A stretch of 64,000 bases of DNA from IMG/VR virus record IMGVR_UViG_3300049259_000177, positions 1 to 64,000 of that record. One strand, given 5' to 3'. This document shows positions 6,851 to 59,542 of this stretch, piece after piece. This stretch comes from a virus. The position numbers and the translations under genes were made by a program. Below the pieces are notes generated by a model. The model ran no database searches. It was not told where the DNA came from and was given only the letters and a program-made list of their open reading frames with translations. The first letter of the stretch is position 1. Each line of letters opens with the position of its first letter.

Positions 6851-6926
6851 GGTCAGTGCTCCTGTCTGCGCGGGTCGCTCTCCCGCGTCCGGCTCATCGT
6901 ACACCCGCTTAGCATGGTCCCGTCAA
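6851..6926 (-). promoter_or_regulatory. box-A promoter cassette 2 with hairpin B
   Basis: TTGACG-N19-TACGAT, GCTAAGCGGGT; hairpin cgcggg-AGAGCGA-cccgcg at 6869-6887. Confidence 0.85.
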
Positions 6927-11175: not shown

Positions 11176-11246
11176 CCTGTCCTCCTGTGGTGGCCGGTCG
11201 CTCTCCGGTCCCACGTAGCGTATACCCGCTTAGCGTCGGCGTGCAA
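11176..11246 (-). promoter_or_regulatory. box-A promoter cassette 3 with hairpin B
   Basis: TTGCAC-N18-TACGCT; hairpin ccgg-AGAGCGA-ccgg at 11194-11208. Confidence 0.85.
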
Positions 11247-26106: not shown

Positions 26107-26127
26107 CCAAGGCCTCCTCGTGGGTGG

Positions 26128-26315
26128 GGCGGGGAGCCCGGTGCCACCAGTGCGAGCGAAGCGACCCGCTCACAGCCCGGCCCGGCGAGCCGGACGACCT
26201 TACCAACCCCTCCGGGGCGCCTGATCTTGCAAGCCGGGTTCCCCGCCGACGGCACCGGCCCCTGGCCTGGGCCCGGCTCGCCGTCTGGCCGTCACCGTGT
26301 GCACCGGCGACGGCC
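26128..26315 (-). ncRNA. pseudoknotted structured RNA or leader (candidate)
   Basis: 11-, 11- and 14-bp helices, two of them crossing; starts just after class-C promoter 26323-26357. Confidence 0.5.
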
Positions 26316-26404
26316 CGCCTTGAATCTAGGGCCGAGTGTCCTCGACGTGGCGCATCAACGAAGCACGAGCCAGGACTTGCGCGGGATTAACGCGCGAATT
26401 TTCG

Positions 26405-31857: not shown

Positions 31858-32049
31858 GCCGGGGTTCGCTCTCCCCGGCGGGGGTGGCGGCTGAGGTCGA
31901 GACGCGGGACGCTACGCCTCGGCCTCACTAACGTCGCGTCGAGCGGCGCTAAGTGGGTGTGCTTTCACAGTAGGGGAACCTAGCGCACCCCGCCGACAGA
32001 AACCGACAACCCGTTACGGGTTGTCGGTTCGGCGTGTCGGGTGTACGGT
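31858..32049. promoter_or_regulatory. divergent control region
   Basis: hairpin B 31858-31879, class-C promoter 31909-31942, box-A variant 31947-31959, 29-bp palindrome 32001-32029, TTGTCG-N17-TACGGT 32021-32049. Confidence 0.75.
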
Positions 32050-33086: not shown

Positions 33087-33134
33087 GCGGGTGTACGATG
33101 AGCCGACGCGGGAGAGCGACCCGCCGGACAGGAG
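33070..33134 (+). promoter_or_regulatory. box-A promoter cassette with hairpin B
   Basis: TTGCAC-N18-TACGAT; gcggg-AGAGCGA-cccgc at 33108-33124; ACAGGAG. Confidence 0.88.
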
Positions 33135-36811: not shown

Positions 36812-38227
36812 CTAGACCTTGCCGCTCACGACGACGTGGTAGGCGTTGAGCGCCGGAGGCGTACCGAAACGCAGCGTGATGGTGTTCGCGTCGGTGACGT
36901 CCCACTCGGTCAACGTGTTCTTGCCGTCGGAGTTGCGCCGCACCGACACGGCGGCGACCTGCGTGCTGCCGAGGTTGTGCGGGATCGCGTACACAGTCGC
37001 AGCCCCGTCGCCGACATCCTGCTCGTAGGCGCGGACCGCCCCGGAGATCTTCGAGACGGCGATCGCGGCGGCGGCCGCAACGTCCGCATTGACGATGGTT
37101 CCGTCGGCGATCTTCGCTGACGTGACGGCACCGTCGGCGATGTTGGTCGTGCCGATCGCCAGTGCTGCGATGTCAGTGCCGACGATGGTTCCGTCGGCGA
37201 TCTTCGCTGACGTGACGGCACCGTCGGCGATCTTCGCGTTGGTGATCGCAAGGTCGGCGACGTTGGTAGTGGCGATCGTCAGGTTGGCGATCTTCGCGCC
37301 AGTGATCGTCGCGTCCTGCATGTCACCGGCGACGATCGTCCCGTCGGCGATGTGTGCGCTCGTCACACCACCGGCGGCGAGACCGATCTGCGGGTTGACG
37401 CCGCCGGTCGAGGTGATCGGCCCAGCGCCGGTGACGGATTGCACGCCGTCGACGGGGCTCTGAAGTTCCTGCCAGTTGGCGAGGACCGTCGGGTCGGCGC
37501 CTTGCAGGATGAACGAGTCGTGGATGTCGGTTCGGATCGCGACGTCGCCGGGCTCGGCAGCGAGCGCGAGCATCGCGGCCTGGCTGGCGACGACAAACGT
37601 GTTGGTGATCGCGAGCGCCGGAAGCAGGCCGGTCGGCAGTAGTCCGTTCGCGTCGAGCCCGGCGAAGCCGTTGGCGACGTTGCGGCCACCGACGATGTTG
37701 GTGACGCGTGCATCGGTGGCGAAAGCGAAGTCGGAGATCGTCGCGGCGGTCTGCGTGCCCGTGTGGTTGGCGCGGGCGAGCGGGTCGACCGCCAGTTTGC
37801 TCAGCAGGATCGCGGCACCGGCCGCAATGTCGGCGTCGACGATGTTGAGCGCGGCCAGTTTCGCTTTCGCGATTGCGGCACCGGCCGCAATGTCGGCGTC
37901 GACGATGGTTCCGTCGGCGATCTTCGCTGACGTGACGGCACCGTCGGCGATCTTGCCGGTGGTCACGGCGAGCGGAGCGACCGTCGGGTTCGGGTAGTTG
38001 CCCGCCAGGTCGCCTCCGGCCGGGCCGGACGGAGCGGTCGAGCCGAACACGACGGACTGTACCTGCGCGCCGTCCCAGTAGCGGATCTGGTCGGTCGAGG
38101 TGTTGTACCAGACCCGGCCCTCGTCGGCGGCTATCAGCCCGGACGGGTCGGCGGCGAGCGCCTGCAACTTGAGGTTGAAGATCTGGAACCCCGCCATGTC
38201 GAGGTTGTTGGTTGCCGGGATAGCCAC
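36812..38227 (-). CDS. tail fibre protein with VTSAKIADGT repeats
   Basis: 10-aa repeats, NGFAGLDANG, ASQAAMLALAAEPGDVAIRTD, C-terminal HNLG domain. Confidence 0.85.
   Translation of the reverse strand: MAIPATNNLDMAGFQIFNLKLQALAADPSGLIAADEGRVWYNTSTDQIRYWDGAQVQSVVFGSTAPSGPAGGDLAGNYPNPTVAPLAVTTGKIADGAVTSAKIADGTIVDADIAAGAAIAKAKLAALNIVDADIAAGAAILLSKLAVDPLARANHTGTQTAATISDFAFATDARVTNIVGGRNVANGFAGLDANGLLPTGLLPALAITNTFVVASQAAMLALAAEPGDVAIRTDIHDSFILQGADPTVLANWQELQSPVDGVQSVTGAGPITSTGGVNPQIGLAAGGVTSAHIADGTIVAGDMQDATITGAKIANLTIATTNVADLAITNAKIADGAVTSAKIADGTIVGTDIAALAIGTTNIADGAVTSAKIADGTIVNADVAAAAAIAVSKISGAVRAYEQDVGDGAATVYAIPHNLGSTQVAAVSVRRNSDGKNTLTEWDVTDANTITLRFGTPPALNAYHVVVSGKV
37091..37951. repeat. three identical 51-bp direct repeats
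   Basis: 37091-37141, 37181-37231, 37901-37951. Confidence 0.9.
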
Positions 38228-39331: not shown

Positions 39332-39399
39332 TTGCGCTCTCACGCTAAGCGGGTGTACGGTCTTGGTTGTGCGGGAGAGCGACCCGCCGGACAGGAGAC
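39332..39399 (+). promoter_or_regulatory. box-A promoter cassette with hairpin B
   Basis: TTGCGC-N18-TACGGT; hairpin 39371-39387; 29 nt identical to the 33108 cassette. Confidence 0.88.
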
Positions 39400-42046: not shown

Positions 42047-43633
42047 TTACCCGGCTGGGCCCTCGCCAACGCCTGCTTCGAGGTCCGCCACGGTGTGGAT
42101 GGGGTCGTCGCGGTAGAACCCGCAGCCGGGAGCCTGGCACTCCGGGTTCGACTTACGCCGCTTGTCCTGCATGAACTCGTGTGGGCCGTCGACCTCCTGC
42201 TCGGCCTCCGGGGTGTGTGCCACCTCGGGCGCCTGGGCGTCAGGAGCGGGCTCCGCCGTTGTCGGCTCGGCGGCGGCCACGGCTTCGCTGTCAGCGGCAC
42301 CGTCGACAATCTCCGCGTCCTCGACGTCGCCGGGCTCGCCCGCGTCCTCGCCGCCGGTGCCGGACAGTACGGCGTCCAGGTCGGCGATCACCGGCGCGGA
42401 CTCGTCGCTCGCCCACACGGCGTAACGTTCCGCCTCGGCCCGGCGGGATTCGTCGCCGCGCAGTTTCTCGACGATCATCGAACGAAAGCCGTGCACCATC
42501 GGCGCAAGCGCGTTCAAGGGGAAGTCCTCGATGTTCTGTCGCCGGGCACGCACGAAGCGGCTGGCGAGTCCCGCCGGGGTGTTGCCCATCTGCTCGGCCT
42601 GCCACCCAAGTTCTACGAGCCAGGCGGCCCGGGCGGCTTTCTCGTCGAGTACCTCGCCCGTCGTCCCGTCGACGGGCTCCTGCTGCTCAGCGGTGGCGTC
42701 GGCGGGCTTCCCTGGCTCCGTCGGCGGTTCCGGGGCCGCAGCGGGTTCCTGAGGGGCACCGGGGGCCGTCTGCGCCGCCTTGGCACGAGCGAACGCTTCC
42801 TTGCGCTGCGCGGCCCGCTCTCGCTCCTCCCGGGCCTTCTCCTCCATGTCGGCGCGGTGCATCTCCTCAAAGGTGACAGTCCCAGCGAACTCGTCGGGGA
42901 ACACCTTGCGCAGCACCAGTGCTTCACTGCATTTCGCAAGCATGTGGTGGAAGCCCTTCTGCCACATCTCGCCGAGTTCCATGATCTGCGTGCCGTCCTC
43001 GCCGACGACCGGCACCTTGCGACGACTACCCTGTGCGCCCTGCCACTCGAACTTCGGGTAGAGCGGCGCGTACATGCCCCAGTGGGCGACGGCGTCGGAG
43101 ACGACCATCTGGCCGAAAGCATCGTAGTGACGGATGACGGCCTTGGCTGCGCCCGGGTAGCCCCGCGATTCGGGCCACTCGTCGTACCACACGCGCTGCA
43201 TGACGCCGGTGGCCTCGTTGTAGCGCCAGCAAGCGGGGTCGTCGTCGTCGCCGGTCCACAGCCAGGTGGCGGAGCCGACGAGGAGTCTGGTGCGGGCAGC
43301 GATCGTGCGATACCCATCAATCCCGACCTGAATGGTGAACTTTGCCTTGTCGCCCTCGCCACGCTGAATGAGGTACGCCTGCCTGCGCCACGGATCTACG
43401 TTCATCCGCTGGCAGACGTGCAGGAAGACTCTGAGGTGCGGGCGGGCGCGCTCATCGTCCGGGTTGGCGTTGGTGATTGCCGACAGCGCGGCTTTCTGCT
43501 CCGGGGTGAGCCGGGTCTGGTTCGGTTCGAGGGTCAGCGAGCCAAGGGTGACTACACCTTCCGGCTCAGGAATCTCGTCGGTGGTCGGGATCTGCTGTTC
43601 CTGCGGTGGCGCCTCGGCCGTAGTGCTGGTCAC
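42047..43633 (-). CDS. bet: Bet/RecT-family single-strand annealing recombinase with long C-terminal extension
   Basis: DPWRRQAYLI.R...TIQVGIDGYRTIA.R...MW.K...MLAKCSEALVLRKVFP. Confidence 0.9.
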   Translation of the reverse strand: MTSTTAEAPPQEQQIPTTDEIPEPEGVVTLGSLTLEPNQTRLTPEQKAALSAITNANPDDERARPHLRVFLHVCQRMNVDPWRRQAYLIQRGEGDKAKFTIQVGIDGYRTIAARTRLLVGSATWLWTGDDDDPACWRYNEATGVMQRVWYDEWPESRGYPGAAKAVIRHYDAFGQMVVSDAVAHWGMYAPLYPKFEWQGAQGSRRKVPVVGEDGTQIMELGEMWQKGFHHMLAKCSEALVLRKVFPDEFAGTVTFEEMHRADMEEKAREERERAAQRKEAFARAKAAQTAPGAPQEPAAAPEPPTEPGKPADATAEQQEPVDGTTGEVLDEKAARAAWLVELGWQAEQMGNTPAGLASRFVRARRQNIEDFPLNALAPMVHGFRSMIVEKLRGDESRRAEAERYAVWASDESAPVIADLDAVLSGTGGEDAGEPGDVEDAEIVDGAADSEAVAAAEPTTAEPAPDAQAPEVAHTPEAEQEVDGPHEFMQDKRRKSNPECQAPGCGFYRDDPIHTVADLEAGVGEGPAG

Positions 43634-44013
43634 GTGCTCCTCCTGGTTGCCGGGTCGCTCTCCGGCGATCGGTCTGTCCTCGATGATGGGGTACGGGTAC
43701 GACAGTTTGGCGCGACATAGTCATTCGCAAGTTGCAGCACGACGTTGCACGCGATGGCCCACAGGTCGGGCCGGGCCTGCCGCAACCGGAGGGCGCGCGC
43801 GACCTCGCGGCGCTTGTCCTCGGGAATGCGCTGCCAGCACATCGCGCACACGACGTTGCCGTAGCGCACGGACAGGCCGCAGCCATGTGTCGGACAGTGG
43901 TGACGGCCACGGGTCTCGACGAACGGCTGGGTATAGACGCCGGGCGCCCGCCACTCGCGTGGCTGGGTCTCCGGCGGCAGTTCTTCGAGGTAGGCGATCT
44001 CGGCGGCGGTCAT
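43630..44013 (-). CDS. zinc-finger hypothetical protein
   Basis: CP..GC...C..CW..IP. Confidence 0.65.
   Translation of the reverse strand: MTAAEIAYLEELPPETQPREWRAPGVYTQPFVETRGRHHCPTHGCGLSVRYGNVVCAMCWQRIPEDKRREVARALRLRQARPDLWAIACNVVLQLANDYVAPNCRTRTPSSRTDRSPESDPATRRST
43636..43716 (-). promoter_or_regulatory. class-C promoter plus hairpin-B leader of bet
   Basis: GTCGCG-N22-CATCAT; gccgg-AGAGCGAC-ccggc at 43649-43666; AGGAGG. Confidence 0.75.
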
Positions 44014-44057
44014 GTCGGGGCGCCGGACCCGTAACGGCCTATGCGGAAGGGCGCCGC

Positions 44058-44369
44058 TCACCGCGAGCAGGCGCCGGTGTGCCCGGGCGGCTTGCGCGGC
44101 CCCGGTTCACCGGCGGGGTCGCCGATGCCGCAGAAGGGGCACAGCGCACGCTCGCGCTCGGAAGAGGCGAGCATCTCGACGACGATGCGGCGGGTCAGGT
44201 CGTGCGGCAACCGAACCCCGGCAGCCTCAGCGGCGCCGGACCACTCCTCCTCGGTGAAGTGCGCAGCCTTGTCGGCGGTGATGTCCATGCCGGACAGCCG
44301 CAGGTACAGACTGAACGCCTTGTTGCGGCGCGCGACCGTCTCGCGCTCCTCGGCGACGGTGGTGATCAC
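44058..44369 (-). CDS. hypothetical protein
   Basis: AGGAGG RBS; first gene after box-A promoter. Confidence 0.75.
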   Translation of the reverse strand: MITTVAEERETVARRNKAFSLYLRLSGMDITADKAAHFTEEEWSGAAEAAGVRLPHDLTRRIVVEMLASSERERALCPFCGIGDPAGEPGPRKPPGHTGACSR

Positions 44370-44377
44370 GGATCTCT

Positions 44378-44447
44378 CCTCCTGGCGGGCCGGTTCGCTC
44401 GCCAGCCCTCACCACGGAGTGTACCCGCTTAGCGTGACAGTCCGCAA
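44378..44447 (-). promoter_or_regulatory. box-A promoter cassette with hairpin-B variant
   Basis: TTGCGG-N18-TACACT; gggctgg-CGAGCGAA-ccggccc at 44387-44408. Confidence 0.8.
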
Positions 44448-44463
44448 CAAGGGATTGCAGCAG

Positions 44464-44607
44464 GGCCCGCCCTGGCGAGTACGTGTGCCGGGTCATCGGG
44501 GGAGCGACCCCTCGCCGACACTCGGCCACTGTCCCGGCCAGGAGGGGGACCGAAGTCCCACACTTTTCACCGGGGAGCGCCTCGTGACGTGACCGCCAGG
44601 ACGAGCC
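44464..44607 (-). ncRNA. stand-alone structured small RNA (candidate)
   Basis: 14-bp closing stem with 2 G-U, cUUCGg hairpin, own promoter TTGAGC-N18-TATCCT at 44623-44652. Confidence 0.6.
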
Positions 44608-44634
44608 ATCTGTGCAGCGATCAGGATAGGGCCG

Positions 44635-45105
44635 TTACACGCCTCCGCTCAATGATGCGCTCCGGCGTTTCGCCGTTGGTGACGCCGTGGCACCTTCGAT
44701 CTTCTGTGTCACCTTCACCTTCGACCAGAACTCACGGTAGGTGGTCTGGCTGGCGACGAGCACGGTACCGATGGTGGCGATGAGGGTCTGTCCGTGCCCG
44801 ATGGTGCCGTCGACTACGCAGGTGATGACCGCGACGGCGACCGCGACGGCAGCGCCGACGAGAGTTCGGGTGGTCGTCGACCAGTGCGGTTGCTGAATGA
44901 TCGCGACGATCGGCGGGGAAATTACGCCCACCACGAGCCCCCACAGTGCCGTGGTCGTGACGATCGAGCCTGCGCTGTCCGCTGGGGGAGCCTTGCCGGT
45001 GGTGGCATACGCGGTGTGCTGCGCAGTGACGAGCAACAGGAGGCACGTAGCGAGCAGGACGAGGAACCTGATCACCCACGAACGCTGCCATAGTCGGACG
45101 AACAT
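44635..45105 (-). CDS. holin
   Basis: several TM segments; VGVISPPIVAIIQQPHWS motif; basic C-terminus. Confidence 0.75.
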   Translation of the reverse strand: MFVRLWQRSWVIRFLVLLATCLLLLVTAQHTAYATTGKAPPADSAGSIVTTTALWGLVVGVISPPIVAIIQQPHWSTTTRTLVGAAVAVAVAVITCVVDGTIGHGQTLIATIGTVLVASQTTYREFWSKVKVTQKIEGATASPTAKRRSASLSGGV

Positions 45106-46477: not shown

Positions 46478-49400
46478 TCACGCGGCGGCGAGAGCGTCGA
46501 CCTGCTTGCGTAGCGTTGCGATCTCCGCCTTGAGCGCAGCGAGGTCGGCGTCGTGCTCCTTGACGATCGGGAGCAGCGGAACCCAGCCCCGGGCGTAGTC
46601 GACGCTGTCGACGCTGTCGAGGTAGTGGATGACGAGTTCGTCGAGACCGGCCGCCCACACCTCCTCGGCGATCAGCCCCCACTGCAACTGCTCGTTGGGC
46701 TCCTCGTCGTCGAACAGGTCAGTGCGCCAGTTGTACTCGACGGCACGGGCCTTGAAGATGCGGCGCGGGTCGGACAGGTCGGCGATGTTCTGCTTGAACC
46801 GTTCAGAGGATGAGATCTTGCCGAGCCTGAATGGCGAGCCAGACCCCCAGATCGTCGACGCATTGTTGGTCGTATATCCGTTGATCGTGTCGGCGCCGTA
46901 GAACGCCACGCCGGTCAACTCGAAGTTGGCGTTACAGGAGATGGTGCCACCACCGTTGTTGATCTGGCCGACGGCGTTGATCGCGTAGCCGCCCATGCCC
47001 AGCCCGCCGGTGATCGACGGGCTGGCGAGCGTGACACCGGAGATGGTGTGGCCGTTGCCGACGACGTCGGTGCCGAGGTAGATCCCCGTACCGATGCTGC
47101 CAAGGCTGACCGACCCGTTTATGGACACCGATTGGTTGGCTGCGCCGATACTGATCAGGCCGTTGCTTTGCATGATGATCAGCGAGCCTGCGTTGACCAG
47201 CGTCAATGACGTGCCGCCGCTGTAGCCGATACCAGCCGAGCCGCCGGAAGAGTTGTAGAAGTAGATGGTGTCGGCACCACTGCTGCTGATCTCGACGCGC
47301 GCACCTGACGCGGCGGTGCGGATCAGGCCGCCGGTGATCGTCCCGCCGGTGACCGAGATGAACGGCGCACCGCCGCTGATCGCCATAGTGGCGACTTCGA
47401 TGCCACCGGAGTCGAAAACATGAAAGCCGGAGCCGTTCATCTCGGTGCGTGCGCCGGAGTCGGCGGTCTTGATGCGCGCGGACACCGTGACGTCCGCCGT
47501 CAGGAGACCGGCGATGAGCGAGCCGACGCTGACCGTCGCGATCTTCGCCGCCTGAATGGTCGCGTCGACGATCTTGGCGTTGGTGATCGTCGCGTCACCG
47601 ATCTTGGCGTTGATGATCGTGCCGTCGGCGATCTGCGCGGTGCCGATAGCGGCGTTGGCGATCTGCGCGGTGCCGACAGCGGCGTTGGCGATCTTGGCTG
47701 TGACGATCGACGCGTCAGCGATGTTCGCCGTCCCGACGGCAAGGGCGCCGATCTTCGCGTTGGTGATCGCCGCGTCCGCGATCTTCGCCGTGGTGATCGC
47801 CGCGTCCGCGATCTGTGCCGATCCGACCACTCGCCGCAACTGGATGTCGTCCACCCAGATCGAGGACCCGGCGGGGGAGGTGTTGAGCGCCCAAACCGAC
47901 AGCAGCATCTCTTGCATACCGGCAGGCACCACGAACAAGCCCTCGTACTTCGCTGTCGCGACGCCGACAGCCGTCGGGGCGATCGGCGTCGCGCTCAGTG
48001 TGGCCGCCGCGTTGAACATGGTCACTTGCAGCATCGCCCCGGCCACTGAACCGCGAGCCTGTATCGAGATGTACCACACGTCACCGGGCGTGGTGCCTAT
48101 CGTCCCTTGGGGCGCAGCGGTGACCAGGATCGCGCTGTTGCTGGTGGCGGCCGTTCCCGAAGGTGTCAGTTTCATCGACTTCGAGCCGTTGATCGGCGCG
48201 GCTACATCCAATGCGACGGCGCCCGAGTATCCCGATGCAACCCCGGACTTCCAGCCTGCCGCCATCGTCGGTGCGGCGGACGATACTTCCTCGAAGCCGG
48301 GGTTGAGCAGCACGTTGTCGGACAGTGCGCCGACGGTCAACTTCTCGGTGCTGACGGCACCGGAGGCGATCTGTGTCGCCGTAATGGCGCCCGCAGCGAT
48401 CAAGCCGGTGGTGATCGCGCCGGTGATGATCTTCGGCGTGGTGATCGCACCGTCGGCGATCTGCGCCGTCACCGTGACCTTGCGCATCTCCACGGCATCG
48501 ACGCATAGGTAGTTCCCGGTATTCGGGTGCGAGTTATAGACGACGACCTGGGCGTAACTGGCTCCGGCGGGCGCTGTCCGCTGACCCTCGTAGACTTGGT
48601 CGTTCTTCGTGCCACCGGGGCCGCCGACATTGCTCAGGTAATCGACTGAACCGATCAGGCTCTTGTTGCCGTCGTACCAATTGACGCGCAGATAGATGCC
48701 GTTGGTCACGGCAGTGGTGTTGCCGTAGAGCATGCGCAGAAAGTAAGCCGCGCCGCCTTGGACAGGAATGAAGTCCGACCAGATGGAGGTCCAACTCGCC
48801 GGATCGGCGAACAACACGGCATATTGCTGCCCCGACGTCGCCCGTGCGGCGCTGAGTTCCAAGTAGGAGTTCGCCTGATTGGAGGTGTCCGCGTTGTTGT
48901 ACCAGCGCGCAATATTCAACGTGTTACCGGTCGGTGCGTTTAGTGCGACGCCGATGTCCTCGAAAGAGGAGTTCGGCAGGAGGTTGTCGCCGATGGCCCC
49001 GATGGTCAGTTTCTCGGCAGTCACCGCCCCGGCGGCGATCTGAGTAGCCGTGACCGCCCCGGCGGCAAGGACTGCTGTGGTAACGCTGCCTGCGATGAGT
49101 TTGGGGGTGGAGATCGAGCCGTCGGCGATCTGCGTCGACGTGACTGCGTTCGCCGCAATGATTGCAGAGGTGACCGAGTTGACCGCGAGCACAGCAGTCG
49201 TGACGCTGCCAGCAGCGAGTTGGGTGGTGCCGACCGTGCCGGGCAGGATCTCATCGGGCATCGGCGAATAGGCTGTGGCGACATTACCTCGCTCGATCTG
49301 TAGCCCGTCGAAGTAAACGCCCGCGCCAGTTGTGCCGTAGAGACGCAGGTCGACAGACGTTGTCGTCGGTCCGGAGGTGAGCGGGATCTCGATGATCTGC

Positions 49401-51796
49401 CACTGGTCTGTCTTGGACCAGTCCACCGAGACGGTTGGCAACGCGACGTAGACGCCCGGGTGGGACCAGTCGATAACCCATACGGGAGAGGAGATTCCGC
49501 TCGCCGGTGCCGCTACGTTCGGCGGCGCCATCGCTGCGGTCACACCGGCCGGTATCCAGACGGCCATGCTGAACGTGTACTCGGTGCTCGGCTTTACTGC
49601 GTACGTCTTCGCGGCGTAATGGTCATGGGCTGTGTCCGGGTTCACCACGTGTAGGACGCGTACGCCGTGGAATGGACTCGGATGGTCGGTTGGGTCCGTC
49701 AGGACCGCTGAGAAACTGGTACCCCATCCAGTCAGCGAACCGGATTCGAACGACGAGTCGGGAGCGATGTTGCCGCCGCCGATCGTCACGTCCAGCGCGA
49801 CGGGTGTCACGGCCTTGGCGGCGATCTGCGCGGCAGTGACGGCGCCAGCGGCGATCTCGGCGGTGGCGACCGCATTCGCTTGAATGACGCGGGCGTCGAT
49901 CGCGTCGGTGGCAATCTTCGCGTTGGTTATCGCCGCGTCATTGATGTCGGCGGCGACCAGTGGCGGAACGACGCCCCCGGCGATGTCGGACGGCGTGCTC
50001 ATGTTGCCGGACCGGTCGACCGCGACGAAGCGGACGTAGACGGTGTCGCCCGCACCACCGACGGCGATCGAGGTGCTGGGTCCGATGAGGCTGTCGATGA
50101 TCTGCACGCCCGGGTCGGTGATGGCGAAGTTGTTGGACGCGGACGCATACACGTCGGTGTGGGAGAAGTCGGCGGACATTGGGTTGCCGCCGGAGTCCAG
50201 TCCATCCCAGGTGACGCGGAGCACGCCGAGGTAAGGCTCAGTGACGGGCGTGCTCGGCTTGTTGGGCGGCGTCGTATCTTCGGCGAGCAGGATCGCTTCG
50301 CTCTCGGTCCAGGCGCCTTCGTTGCCGCCGAAGTCGACTGCGCGCACGCGGGCGGTGAACAGATGTCCGACCGGCAGGCTCGACAGGAACATGACGGTGC
50401 CGTCGTTGAACTGCTCGGCGCCGGTCCAGCCGTTCGAGTCGATGCGGTAGGCGACGTCGTAGTGCCCGAAATCGTCGAAGGCGGAGCCGTCCGTGTTCTC
50501 GGTGACGTCGGTCCACGAGATCGTCGCCTGCGCTTCGGTCTGACCGGCGGCGTCGACGTACGCAGCGGAGGAGACGTCGACGGCGAGCGGCGCGGCCGGG
50601 AAGGTGACGTCCGGCCCCTCTTTCTTCGGCTGCGGCGCGCGTGTGTTCGACGTCGAGCCGTTGAGAATGCCGTCGATCTTGCGTTGCAGCCGCATCGAGA
50701 TCTCGACGATGAGGTCGTTGAGTTCGATCGACGTGCTCTGTAATCCGTCCTGGCTGAACACGCGCGCGATGGTGCGCACGCGCTGCGGTGCCCAGCCAGT
50801 GTCGTCGTCGGTGCGCCGCTGGTCGTAGCGGACGTAGTCGCCGAGGTAGTAGTCGACGGAGGGCGTCGGTGCGCCTTCGCCGCCAGGAATGTAGACGAGG
50901 GTGATCGCTTCACTCGTCGCCTGATAACTCGCCGCCTCGACTTCGCCTATAGCCTGCAAGGTGCCGAGGTCGGTGACGCCGCCACGACCGTCGTACGCTT
51001 CGCGGCGACGACCGGACCAGTTCGGCGTGGCTTCCTCGGCGAGCGCGCCTTCATCGCCGACGAGCAGCACCGTCGAGCGCTTGGTACGCCGCGACCGCAC
51101 GCGCGGGCCCTGGGTGACGGACTGACCGAGCCGGAAGATGACGTCGGGGCGGTCGGTGCCGCCGGGCCCGGTGTCCGGTACGAACATCTGCAACGTCATG
51201 CCGTTCATGCGGAAGTCGGCCCAGGCGTTGTCCGCGAACCCTTGCAGCACCTTGAGGTAGTCGCTGCCCGTGTCGTAGGTGATCGTGTACTGCTTCGGCC
51301 ACGGCTGCCCGGCGGAGTCGTTGACGGCGTCGAAGTCGTAGGAGACGTCCTGCAACGCGCCGCGCGCCTTCGCCTTCGAGATCAGGTCGTGCATGATCTG
51401 ACCGGGGGTGGCGTCGGCGAACCCTTGATGCGGGTCGAGGTTGATGACCGGACCGCCCGGGACGTGATCGGCCGGGAAGACGATCGGGTCTTCGAGCAGC
51501 GCAAGGACGCCACGTCCGCCGAACGTCGTCGTCATCGTCGGCTTCGGCTGCTTCGCCGGATCGTCGCTGTCGTCTTCGAGCAGGTACCAGTCGGGCTGGA
51601 TTACCCCGTCGACGACGGGGACGAGGACCGCTTCGTCGAGGTCGATCAGCGCCGAGCCGACGCCGAGCAGCGGGTACTCGGCAGACAGCGCACCGGTTCC
51701 GTTGAACTCTTCCTGGATGCTCGCGGAGGTGAACTCGGACAGGCGGCCGATGTAGGTGGTGCCGTCTATCTCGTAGATGTCGAAGTACACGCCCAT
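46478..51796 (-). CDS. large minor tail protein (Tal-type hub, FN3, three CBM-like domains, S74 chaperone)
   Basis: follows Dit; three N...N.SFE repeats; ITNAKIAD repeats; SSERFKQNI...WGLIAEEV plus coiled coil. Confidence 0.9.
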   Translation of the reverse strand: MGVYFDIYEIDGTTYIGRLSEFTSASIQEEFNGTGALSAEYPLLGVGSALIDLDEAVLVPVVDGVIQPDWYLLEDDSDDPAKQPKPTMTTTFGGRGVLALLEDPIVFPADHVPGGPVINLDPHQGFADATPGQIMHDLISKAKARGALQDVSYDFDAVNDSAGQPWPKQYTITYDTGSDYLKVLQGFADNAWADFRMNGMTLQMFVPDTGPGGTDRPDVIFRLGQSVTQGPRVRSRRTKRSTVLLVGDEGALAEEATPNWSGRRREAYDGRGGVTDLGTLQAIGEVEAASYQATSEAITLVYIPGGEGAPTPSVDYYLGDYVRYDQRRTDDDTGWAPQRVRTIARVFSQDGLQSTSIELNDLIVEISMRLQRKIDGILNGSTSNTRAPQPKKEGPDVTFPAAPLAVDVSSAAYVDAAGQTEAQATISWTDVTENTDGSAFDDFGHYDVAYRIDSNGWTGAEQFNDGTVMFLSSLPVGHLFTARVRAVDFGGNEGAWTESEAILLAEDTTPPNKPSTPVTEPYLGVLRVTWDGLDSGGNPMSADFSHTDVYASASNNFAITDPGVQIIDSLIGPSTSIAVGGAGDTVYVRFVAVDRSGNMSTPSDIAGGVVPPLVAADINDAAITNAKIATDAIDARVIQANAVATAEIAAGAVTAAQIAAKAVTPVALDVTIGGGNIAPDSSFESGSLTGWGTSFSAVLTDPTDHPSPFHGVRVLHVVNPDTAHDHYAAKTYAVKPSTEYTFSMAVWIPAGVTAAMAPPNVAAPASGISSPVWVIDWSHPGVYVALPTVSVDWSKTDQWQIIEIPLTSGPTTTSVDLRLYGTTGAGVYFDGLQIERGNVATAYSPMPDEILPGTVGTTQLAAGSVTTAVLAVNSVTSAIIAANAVTSTQIADGSISTPKLIAGSVTTAVLAAGAVTATQIAAGAVTAEKLTIGAIGDNLLPNSSFEDIGVALNAPTGNTLNIARWYNNADTSNQANSYLELSAARATSGQQYAVLFADPASWTSIWSDFIPVQGGAAYFLRMLYGNTTAVTNGIYLRVNWYDGNKSLIGSVDYLSNVGGPGGTKNDQVYEGQRTAPAGASYAQVVVYNSHPNTGNYLCVDAVEMRKVTVTAQIADGAITTPKIITGAITTGLIAAGAITATQIASGAVSTEKLTVGALSDNVLLNPGFEEVSSAAPTMAAGWKSGVASGYSGAVALDVAAPINGSKSMKLTPSGTAATSNSAILVTAAPQGTIGTTPGDVWYISIQARGSVAGAMLQVTMFNAAATLSATPIAPTAVGVATAKYEGLFVVPAGMQEMLLSVWALNTSPAGSSIWVDDIQLRRVVGSAQIADAAITTAKIADAAITNAKIGALAVGTANIADASIVTAKIANAAVGTAQIANAAIGTAQIADGTIINAKIGDATITNAKIVDATIQAAKIATVSVGSLIAGLLTADVTVSARIKTADSGARTEMNGSGFHVFDSGGIEVATMAISGGAPFISVTGGTITGGLIRTAASGARVEISSSGADTIYFYNSSGGSAGIGYSGGTSLTLVNAGSLIIMQSNGLISIGAANQSVSINGSVSLGSIGTGIYLGTDVVGNGHTISGVTLASPSITGGLGMGGYAINAVGQINNGGGTISCNANFELTGVAFYGADTINGYTTNNASTIWGSGSPFRLGKISSSERFKQNIADLSDPRRIFKARAVEYNWRTDLFDDEEPNEQLQWGLIAEEVWAAGLDELVIHYLDSVDSVDYARGWVPLLPIVKEHDADLAALKAEIATLRKQVDALAAA

Positions 51797-58685: not shown

Positions 58686-58960
58686 CGGCTGCGGACCCCA
58701 GCCGCGCTGCACAGCCGCCGCCACCCAGTGGATGCGCCCCGAGGCCGCCACAGCCGGGGACGCTGCTCGACCGTAAGGGGCCGCACGACACAACGTCGTG
58801 CTGGGCGCGCTGACCTCTAGTTCGAGGCGGCGGCGCCATAGCCCCGCACCCGGGACTTGCCGGTGAACGGATGACACGCTGTTGGCCCGCCAGAGCGGTC
58901 GATCAACCGCTCTAGACGGGCCAGCAGGTCAGCGCGTTGCGCCTCAGTCAGATTGCATCC
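58686..58960 (-). ncRNA. large multi-stem RNA downstream of the major tail gene (candidate)
   Basis: 11-bp long-range helix 58806-58816/58926-58936, long hairpin 58883-58923 with minus-strand G-U pairs, closing GGATGC/GCATCC. Confidence 0.55.
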
Positions 58961-59542
58961 TTATGCAGCGAGTGGGTCAAACGCAGGATCGTCCGTTACG
59001 TCATACCACGGGTCACCGACGTCGCTGCCCAAAATTGACAGCCGCAGCGGGAGGGTGGACTCCGCCGTCTTGTGCCACTGCTGGGTGACACCTTCGGACT
59101 GCATGCACTTCGGCACGATCCGGCGGTAGTGCTTGGTGCCGTCGGTGACCTCGATGATCGCGGCGACGTTGGTCCGGCCGCCGATGGCGGGTGGGCTGAA
59201 CTTGTAGTACGGGGCGCCGCCGCCGCTGGGCGTCACCGAGGTGACCGTGCCGCCACCGTAGACGGACTTGAAGTTGTCTCCCGACCACTCCTGCAAGTCG
59301 ACCTGCACCGTCGCGGCGTCGGTCGTCTGGAACCGGCGGGTCGGGTAATTCGACTGATGAGAGTTGACCTCCTGGAAGCCAGGGTTGGTCGCCCATTCCA
59401 GCGAGTCCGGCGTGAACAGACCGACGTCCTTCCATGCCGGATCGAGAGTGGCGACGGGGCCGTCCGGTGCGATGGTGCCGACGGGGGCCAGGTAGACCCG
59501 CGCCATCTGCGCGACTGTGATGCGAGTGGCGTCACCGGCCAC
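58961..59542 (-). CDS. major tail protein
   Basis: VYLAPVGT..P......W.DVG....D pattern; strong AGGAGG; class-C promoter 59585-59618. Confidence 0.9.
   Translation of the reverse strand: MAGDATRITVAQMARVYLAPVGTIAPDGPVATLDPAWKDVGLFTPDSLEWATNPGFQEVNSHQSNYPTRRFQTTDAATVQVDLQEWSGDNFKSVYGGGTVTSVTPSGGGAPYYKFSPPAIGGRTNVAAIIEVTDGTKHYRRIVPKCMQSEGVTQQWHKTAESTLPLRLSILGSDVGDPWYDVTDDPAFDPLAA

Follow-up and report, generated by a model that had tools for sequence, protein, structure and literature searches.

Between the late genes and the early RecT operon of an uncultured virus lies a structured element that, judged from its sequence, is probably functional and belongs to no described family. The stretch analyzed here (the window) is the first 64 kb, 64,000 nucleotides, of the 114,594-bp IMG/VR virus record IMGVR_UViG_3300049259_000177, a genome of ~66% GC estimated to be 88% complete; the relatives of its RecT point to an actinobacterial host. 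The minus strand holds all the genes flanking the element, which sits at the 3' end of the late tail-fiber and membrane-protein genes, with the RecT operon's early box-A promoter immediately 3' of it. It is structured above the level expected by chance, and sequence comparison indicates that it is conserved as a structured RNA in one related phage. The single-stranded motifs shared by the two phages are the reverse complement of a start-associated leader cassette of the phage itself and so link the element to a definite group of targets. The reading that we favor, with a probability of about 0.42, is that the element is a gene-strand "anti-leader" RNA, read on the minus strand, that would pair with the leaders of the genes carrying these cassettes.

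Fold and conservation of the element

The element comprises the following parts, of which GUCANNAGGNGCU recurs in the related metagenome contig described below (L002).

44464 to 44607, minus: whole structured element, ~144 nt, with the closing helix P1 surrounding a variable junction (P2) and the arms P3 and P4
44594 to 44607, minus: 5' strand of P1, GGCUCGUCCUGGCG, paired with 44464-44477
44464 to 44477, minus: 3' strand of P1, CGCCAGGGCGGGCC, paired with 44594-44607
44575 to 44593, minus: junction/P2, variable, 19 nt, with GUCANNAGGNGCU in common with L002
44533 to 44574, minus: P3 arm, basal stem CCCGGU/GCCGGG
44567 to 44563 and 44546 to 44540, minus: P3 internal loop, AAAAG opposite CCCUCCU (anti-Shine-Dalgarno)
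44559 to 44546, minus: P3 apical hairpin GGGAC-UUCG-GUCCC
44485 to 44521, minus: P4 arm, basal stem GUGUCGG/CCGGCAC (44521-44515 / 44491-44485)
44511 to 44499, minus: P4 cap GGGG-UCGCU-CCCC, loop UCGCU at 44507-44503

An earlier note, made from the sequence without database searches, had listed helices and promoter-like hexamers at this locus, and all of them were found on the minus strand where it had placed them. Folded on that strand, a 147-nt segment reaches -82.2 kcal/mol (z -3.15), and none of 200 shuffles is as stable; the plus strand of the same 147 nt gives -73.1 kcal/mol (z -2.09). The P1 run is 15 bp when G-U pairs are counted, one of them an extra pair at its end, and the longest run in 300 shuffles of the gap was 14. 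Two G-U pairs lie within the helix and become C-A mismatches on the plus strand, as the earlier note had argued in calling the helix valid on minus only. The longest run of Watson-Crick pairs alone is 7 bp, which is not significant against the shuffles. Since P1 is significant only when G-U pairs are counted, its signal is meaningful only as a minus-strand RNA.

In a genome-wide scan of 147-nt segments, the element ranks 30th of 6186 window-strands, which is notable and not unique. Equally or more stable folds in this GC-corrected scan lie beyond the window at 66812-67106 (minus), 98188-98408, 94118-94264 (plus), 73546-73692 (minus), 109214-109360 (plus) and 75766-75912, and inside it at 58783-59003 and 31884-32030. 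Two further scan matches, 37138-37321 and 47535-47681, correspond to coding repeats in the fiber genes.

Conservation was assessed from two sequences, the window and L002, a 4-kb JGI metagenome contig whose RecT is 52% identical over the N-terminal domain. In L002 the end of a gene for a hydrophobic protein is followed in turn by a gap of ~280 nt, the box-A-like GCTAAGCGCGGTGTACGAT, the leader hairpin (GGCCAGG-GCGAGCGAT-CCTGGCC), a Shine-Dalgarno sequence and RecT, in agreement with the order in the window. The two gaps are collinear, with an alignment score of 225 versus 140 +/- 17 for shuffles, none of 1000 scoring as high; the maximum among 1146 real segments was 217, and the reverse complement scored 124. 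The orthologous element is located as follows.

L002:247-437, plus: element orthologue, with the same genomic position, collinear similarity and the same order of folds

Folded alone, L002:246-436 has a z of -4.05 at a minimum free energy (MFE) of -88.8. Its closing helix consists of 13 perfect base pairs and 4 more, which none of 300 shuffles reached, and P3 and P4 lie inside it in the same order as in the window. The junction is ~49 nt long with two extra hairpins, versus 19 nt in the window. The P3 region is ~67% identical over 49 nt and contains the common blocks GUCANNAGGNGCU ... GGU(G)AAAAGYG, 14 nt, CCCUCCU at equal spacing in both phages, and the P4 tip UCGCUCCCC is also common to both. 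The parts conserved in sequence, UCGCUCCCC and AAAAGYG-N14-CCCUCCU, are the single-stranded ones. The earlier characterization of the locus as a structured non-coding element on the minus strand is supported.

The stems, by comparison, differ in sequence and keep their pairing. The P3 basal stem has two changes on both sides, with CCGG/CCGG in the window and CUGG/CCAG in L002, and the P4 basal stem is compensatory, with GUGUCGG/CCGGCAC in the window and CUGUGGG/UCCACAG in L002. Both sides have changed in 18 of the 48 consensus pairs of a structure-guided alignment, one that was fitted by the author to the structure. On this same alignment Alifold gives -56.2 for the gene (RecT) strand versus -45.9 for the other strand, and mirroring the shared fold onto the other strand loses 5 pairs in the window and 3 in L002.

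Repeats of this kind could instead act at the level of DNA, as a protein-binding site, as inversion or MITE-like inverted repeats, or as a set of operators for the box-A promoter, which we regard as distinctly improbable. The flanking repeats of L002, 13 perfect base pairs and 4 more, would suit such a role, as would the placement of the module relative to a hairpin, which differs between the two phages. The window repeat, however, is significant only with its G-U pairs, the 7-bp Watson-Crick run not being significant, and there is no sequence in common between the repeats that flank the module in one phage and those in the other, unlike transposon ends or recombinase sites. Pfam and PHROG scans found no recombinase nearby, the other box-A promoters have no such structured module, and there is one copy per genome.

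Between its upstream gene and the element, L002 carries a further strong hairpin (187-228, within 184-236), CUGGCGAGUCGUGGGG...CCCCACGACGCCCAG, followed by UUGUGCUCU. The 5' arm of this hairpin resembles the 5' strand of P1 in the window at 12 of 16 positions. Both phages also have a 14-mer, GGCG(N)TGTAACGGCC, at the end of the upstream gene, and it occurs once in the window's genome.

Complementarity to start-associated leaders

The cassettes to which the element is complementary begin with a promoter, TTGCAC-N18-TACGAT with the spacer ACGCTAAGCGGGTG, and ACGCTAAGCGGGTGTAC is present in ~13 good copies in the 114.6-kb genome. The box-A promoter that the earlier note placed next to the element is therefore a genuine promoter cassette; this copy, at 44447-44418, sits between the element and the 103-aa gene that opens the RecT operon. 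Most box-A cassettes lead into a hairpin (hairpin B) with the conserved loop (A/C)GAGCGA, then (A)CAGGAG and a start codon. The stems of these hairpins vary yet stay paired (GCGGG/CCCGC, CCGGGG/CCCCGG, GCGCGG/CCGCGC, GGCCG/CGGCC). There are ~16 units of hairpin, Shine-Dalgarno sequence and start codon in the genome, some of them without a box-A, such as the RecT unit at 43666-43649 within the end of the 143-aa gene. None were seen in the structural genes at 46-64 kb.

64-84, 6869-6887, 11194-11208, 31858-31879, 43649-43666 and 44387-44408, minus: start-associated units in the window
33108-33124 and 39371-39387, plus: start-associated units in the window
44418 to 44447, minus: box-A promoter of the RecT operon, TTGCGG (44447-44442), 18-nt spacer with ACGCTAAGCGGG, TACACT (44423-44418)
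44376 to 44408, minus: leader hairpin B' of the 103-aa gene, GGGCUGG-CGAGCGAA-CCGGCCC (44408-44387), and Shine-Dalgarno sequence AGGAGGAG (44383-44376)

The P4 sequence GGGUCGCUC (44510-44502) is exactly complementary to GAGCGACCC, the leader-hairpin motif that adjoins the Shine-Dalgarno sequence, and complementarity is equally exact between the apical loop of P4, UCGCU(C), and the GAGCGA loop of the leaders. The P4 loop has a predicted unpaired probability of 0.96-1.0 in the window and L002 alike. The 9-mer GAGCGACCC is present in several cassettes, including that of RecT, and occurs 7 times in the window versus 2.4 expected. In addition, CCUCCUGG complements CCAGGAGG of the ribosome-binding sites of the 103-aa gene and RecT. 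RNAduplex applied to the whole sequences returned meaningless giant duplexes and was uninformative.

The genome holds only one inverted, gene-less leader copy. Elsewhere on the minus strand, 26120-26320 forms a strong leader-like fold of -125 kcal/mol (z -2.9). Positions 26128-26315 were tried as a second copy and rejected, as the UCGCU there (GGGUCGCUUCGCUCG) lies in a stem and not in a loop, and the CCUCCU..UCGCUC arrangement is missing.

As an anti-leader RNA, the inverted leader copy would carry on the gene strand the complements of leader motifs, UCGCU(C) in the apical loop of P4 and CCUCCU in the internal loop of P3. The RNA would be made by read-through of the upstream late genes, possibly with help from a weak promoter; we infer read-through because the element lacks its own terminator and any conserved promoter. 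The 14-15-bp closing helix, kept in structure and not in sequence, would clamp the two ends and may be a processing or stabilizing stalk. The P4 loop would then kiss the GAGCGA loop of leader hairpins, an interaction that could extend to 9 bp, GGGUCGCUC with GAGCGACCC. A first target would lie in cis, in the leader hairpin ~110 nt downstream on read-through transcripts (the 103-aa gene being the nearest candidate), and further targets in trans would be the ~16 cassette-bearing genes. The outcome may be lower translation or stability of these targets once late transcription runs. Structure, conservation, complementarity and loop exposure are read from the sequences; that the RNA is transcribed, processed and paired, and that its effect has this direction, we infer.

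Because its conserved motifs are the reverse complement of the leader cassette, the element is best described as descending from an inverted start-associated leader that lost its gene. A plausible earlier state is found in L030, part of the IMG/VR provirus 2932604667_000002 (126,865 bp), whose RecT is 43% identical. L030:4781-4998 is a divergent promoter region in which RecT and a divergent 339-aa gene both have hairpin-B leaders; an inverted hairpin (loop CGAGCGA), then ACAGGAG and ATG, form the leader of the 339-aa gene. This gene is absent from the window's genome. In the divergent leader of L030 the hairpin and the Shine-Dalgarno sequence are unusually far apart (~30 nt), as in the orphan copies, where the hairpin-B core GGGGAGCGA and AGGAGGG (Shine-Dalgarno) lie ~25-27 nt apart on the opposite strand in both phages.

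Under one alternative, which we consider improbable, the orphan is a functionless, decaying relic of the divergent gene's leader and its folds are by-products of GC-rich sequence. L030 would be the likely ancestral state for this, with its inverted hairpin B and Shine-Dalgarno sequence serving the 339-aa gene; many GC-rich loci in the genome fold well, and neither the covariance model nor the consensus from a MAFFT alignment is strong (see below). The pattern of conservation nevertheless indicates that the orphan element is under selection. With RecT just 52% identical, neutral DNA should be scrambled, yet the collinear similarity persists and is significant, and the spacing of the motifs is identical in both phages. 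Both orphan copies share GGGGAGCGA, unlike the working cassettes (GGGAGAGCGA / GGGCGAGCGA), and significant long helices enclose both.

The extent of this lineage was explored by several searches. RecT alignments against IMG/VR, JGI metagenomes and GTDB genomes gave only L002, L030 and distant RecTs, and nearer homologs at 60-73% identity (P0005-P0009) lie on short Logan and JGI contigs. A DNA search of the phage GenBank collection found no match and no close cultured phage, and there was no match for the 103-aa protein by tblastn, for RecT as a single query in IMG/VR, or for the proteins of the window's neighboring genes by tblastn in any retrieved locus. Pattern scans of IMG/VR found the exact box-A motif on 1 contig, unrelated, and AAAAGYG..CCCTCCT..TCGCTCCCC nowhere (0 matches). 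The pattern of hairpin B plus Shine-Dalgarno sequence retrieved the lineage members G002-G004 and G011 from IMG/VR, with RecT in G011 only; the orphan module is in none of these four.

The same motifs can be read in the opposite direction, as follows.

44497 to 44567, plus: opposite-strand reading, hairpin-B-like cGGGG-GAGCGA-CCCCucg (44497-44514), 25 nt, AGGAGG (44540-44545), a small hairpin, TTTT (44564-44567)

Neither in the window nor in L002 are these motifs followed by a start codon or an open reading frame (ORF). They could nonetheless specify a plus-strand orphan-leader small RNA (sRNA) of ~75-80 nt, with hairpin B at its 5' end, a start-less Shine-Dalgarno sequence as a STAB-SD-like 5' stabilizer and a hairpin with UUUU as a weak terminator. 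Such an RNA could act as a decoy and capture any factor that recognizes hairpin-B leaders, or it could begin an antisense transcript that enters the late genes; we judge it unlikely. It explains four conserved motifs neatly, since both phages show the hairpin-B-like GGGGAGCGA, 25-27 nt, AGGAGG, a hairpin of 4-5 bp, N2-4 and UUUU, with a small stem that differs between them (GGGAC/GUCCC in the window, GGUG/CACC in L002). The window also has plus-strand hexamers, TTGCAG (44455-44460), N19, TACGTG (44480-44485), that resemble TTGCAC-N18-TACGAT and end 11 nt before the hairpin, and in L030 the same hairpin leads a gene in the equivalent direction, so that the lineage does contain a promoter of this orientation. 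L002, however, has no comparable promoter, and the terminator, with 4 U and a stem of 4-5 bp, fails the criteria of the terminator scan. The plus-strand RNA leaves P1 and the bases of P3 and P4 unexplained, though these are kept with compensatory changes, and on that strand their G-U pairs turn into A-C mismatches. It would oppose every neighboring gene, and the analogous hairpin of Cluster K mycobacteriophages, discussed below, favors the gene strand.

Several observations count against the favored anti-leader RNA. Only two orthologues could be compared, and their structural alignment was fitted to the structure. In an unbiased MAFFT alignment the consensus is weak for either strand (-24.6 and -20.7), the L002 element is missed by a covariance model made with only the window sequence (8 bits, E 0.38), and the MFE of L002 is slightly lower for antisense than for sense (-92.6 vs -88.8). 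The P1 sequences of the two phages are unrelated, so that the closing helices may be of independent origin, and about a dozen other loci in the genome fold as stably or better. The anti-Shine-Dalgarno CCUCCU is partly exposed, with only its CC predicted to be unpaired. The element has neither a promoter of its own (at scan level, and conserved) nor a terminator of its own. Finally, the inverted hairpin of L030 merely leads the divergent 339-aa gene, and an origin as an inverted leader means that complementarity alone is no proof of an antisense function.

Expression signals, coding potential and neighboring genes

The gene order around the element was taken from a third-position GC frame plot and from Pfam and PHROG scans.

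51796 to 46478, minus: tail fiber, 1772 aa (frame plot, Pfam/PHROG)
Between the tail fiber and the gap, minus: four small ORFs, the last being the 156-aa ORF
44635 to 45105, minus: upstream 156-aa ORF, last gene after the tail fiber (frame plot, translation)
44634 to 44370: non-coding gap, 265 nt, between the 156-aa ORF and the 103-aa gene
44623 to 44652, minus: promoter-like hexamers TTGAGC (44652-44647), N18, TATCCT (44628-44623)
42047 to 44369, minus: downstream operon of the 103-aa gene, the 143-aa gene and RecT
44369 to 44058, minus: 103-aa gene
44061 to 43630, minus: 143-aa gene, Cys-rich
43633 to 42047, minus: RecT, 528 aa

The earlier note had called the product of the upstream gene a holin. 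Its translation resembles a signal peptide plus transmembrane segments, as in a membrane protein, and the 156-aa ORF has no Pfam or PHROG family match; holin is a putative label.

The element had further been described as stand-alone, with its own promoter. The hexamers TTGAGC-N18-TATCCT are present and match 8 of 12 consensus positions, which is below the threshold of the promoter scan and went unreported there, and the -35-like TTGAGC falls within the last codons of the 156-aa ORF. L002 reads TGGCGA at the corresponding -10 and has no promoter-like site. A scan found no terminator-like site on either strand at the window locus or the L002 locus, and no U-tract follows P1, the next sequence being CUGCUGCAAUCCC. 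The -35 hexamer of the box-A promoter comes 17 nt downstream of the element and the box-A motif 29 nt downstream. With a weak promoter whose -10 is not conserved in L002 and with no terminator after the element, the description as a stand-alone unit is not supported.

This position would also suit a structure at the 3' end of the late operon that has no base-pairing role. It could terminate transcription, serve as a site of RNase processing, block exonucleases or insulate the early RecT promoter from late read-through. Such a structure would directly follow the last late gene and precede the promoter, as is the case in both phages, and the long helix unites the two ends. The extra strong hairpin of L002 (187-228), followed by UUGUGCUCU, also lies between gene end and element, and the best match of the covariance model, which is not significant, aligns P1 of the window to this hairpin. 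We consider this reading quite unlikely, as no U-tract follows P1 and as it accounts neither for the single-strandedness of the conserved blocks nor for their being exact complements of the leader loop and the Shine-Dalgarno sequence.

Protein coding was evaluated across the gap (44370-44634), where the third-position GC profile is flat and shows no codon periodicity. The sole ORF on the minus strand is 38 aa long (44609-44493) and has no counterpart in L002, in agreement with the earlier view that no credible ORF is present. Leaderless translation is common in Actinobacteria, and the ATG of this ORF lies 13 nt after the TATCCT hexamer, so that a small peptide translated from a nearly leaderless transcript of the weak promoter is conceivable. 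We give this very little credence, however, as there is neither codon periodicity nor a Shine-Dalgarno sequence, an Arg/Pro/Gly-rich product such as this is what random GC-rich frames typically yield, and L002, read by eye, has no similar ORF at the same place.

Known RNA families were not recognized either, as the earlier note had anticipated. Rfam 15, which includes 6C, riboswitches, Y-RNA-like and retron msr families, gave no match in the window at gathering thresholds, and at E <= 10 over 44300-44800 the single hit was a chance fragment of a small nucleolar RNA outside the element. ARAGORN found 0 tRNA or transfer-messenger RNA genes in the window. A tRNA-like element was rejected on finding no cloverleaf with ARAGORN, in line with the claim that the element is not a tRNA, and a riboswitch or other Rfam family was rejected for want of a covariance-model match. 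A retron non-coding RNA was rejected in turn, since the neighbors (the 103-aa ORF, the 143-aa ORF, RecT, the small ORFs and the tail fiber) have no reverse-transcriptase domain in Pfam or PHROG scans.

Two features of the neighboring proteins were observed in passing. At 528 aa, RecT is unusually long, with a conserved C-terminal extension in which an H..C..C..H-type pattern (H485, C499, C504, H513) is invariant in all close relatives; by its sequence this extension looks like a zinc-binding tail. The 143-aa protein preceding RecT is likewise Cys/His-rich. Periodic repeats of 30 nt (GATCGCCGCGTC...GGCGATCTT...) at 37059-37980 and 47508-49939 are common to two tail-fiber genes, which suggests a repeated unit of 10 residues in both fibers.

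Comparison with known systems

The closest known system to the cassettes are the SAS/ESAS motifs of Cluster K mycobacteriophages, described in 2011 together with a single reverse-oriented SAS (PMC3203893); their function was still undefined in papers of 2024-2025. We regard them as an analog and not as the same family. Both are phage-specific motifs just before the start codons of 13-19 mostly non-structural genes, and in many cases a hairpin or inverted repeat precedes the Shine-Dalgarno sequence. The SAS consensus is the 13-bp GGGATAGGAGCCC, located 3-7 bp before start codons, and it is absent from the window, where one match with 2 mismatches was found versus 1.3 expected. The cassette of the window differs in having a conserved hairpin loop (GAGCGA) upstream of an ordinary Shine-Dalgarno sequence, often with a box-A promoter.

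The reverse copies can be compared as well. In phage Anaya the reverse SAS lies in the non-coding gap between gp96 and gp97 (L139:39850-39903, corresponding to JF704106 59849-59902), reads CCUCCUAUCCC on the gene strand and lies at the tip of a long hairpin, within its apical loop (fold z -3.99). The hairpin segment is kept in 128 Cluster K records. Across seven diverse Cluster K phages (Anaya and L140-L145) its 16-bp stem is maintained, and each of the 8 one-sided changes leaves a G-U pair when read on the gene strand, which suggests that the hairpin is a gene-strand "anti-SAS" RNA. Some Cluster K records annotate a hypothetical protein over it. The reverse SAS thus sits in the apical loop of a gene-strand hairpin, as UCGCU does in P4, the difference being that the window's copy is part of a 145-nt fold of several helices and that of Cluster K is in a single hairpin. 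This parallel, an analogy and not a homology, makes both the anti-leader reading and the gene strand more plausible.

If taken further, the parallel would imply dedicated anti-leader RNAs in actinophages, in which a repurposed inverted leader switches ~16 genes jointly by loop-loop kissing, with the same logic arising independently in Cluster K. We hold this wider proposal to be possible and rather doubtful. Were it true, it would offer a first mechanistic entry point to motifs of the SAS/ESAS type, unexplained in their role since 2011. If the element acts as proposed, one small RNA would give a phage a compact means of lowering or raising an entire gene class. The element is a concrete candidate partner for a start-associated motif, located at the boundary of late and early regions of the genome, and Cluster K mycobacteriophages, which are cultured and amenable to routine genetics and RNA-seq, lend themselves to testing the same idea. 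Should the element prove no more than a 3'-end structure or a relic, it would be an ordinary structured intergenic region.

Antisense regulators with a similar arrangement are known from other phages. The c4 RNA of phages P1 and P7 is a small structured antisense repressor that is located upstream of its targets in the same unit and released by cleavage of a longer transcript; through short exposed sequences it pairs with sites beside a downstream ribosome-binding site, and it controls one operon (icd/ant). The proposed RNA would by analogy resemble c4 as a structured RNA upstream of complementary leaders in the same unit. Unlike c4, it would face ~16 leaders with the complementary motif in place of one operon, and the two share no similarity in sequence or fold, nor is there an Rfam match.

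Kissing-loop antisense RNAs are exemplified by ColE1 RNA I/RNA II and R1 CopA/CopT, and the actinobacterial 6C sRNA has C-rich loops that pair with G-rich ribosome-binding regions. The predicted features of the element are similar to both, with a GC-rich loop of 5-9 nt complementary to a target loop and a C-rich anti-Shine-Dalgarno sequence. It differs from the plasmid systems in not being transcribed opposite its target, and from 6C in having no Rfam match and an anti-Shine-Dalgarno sequence that is only partly unpaired.

Long helices formed by two flanks within a polycistronic transcript are found in the processing stalks that flank rRNAs and in the RNase III sites of phage T7. At 14-17 bp, P1 is shorter than typical RNase III substrates, and like these stalks and sites it appears to be conserved as a structure rather than as a sequence.

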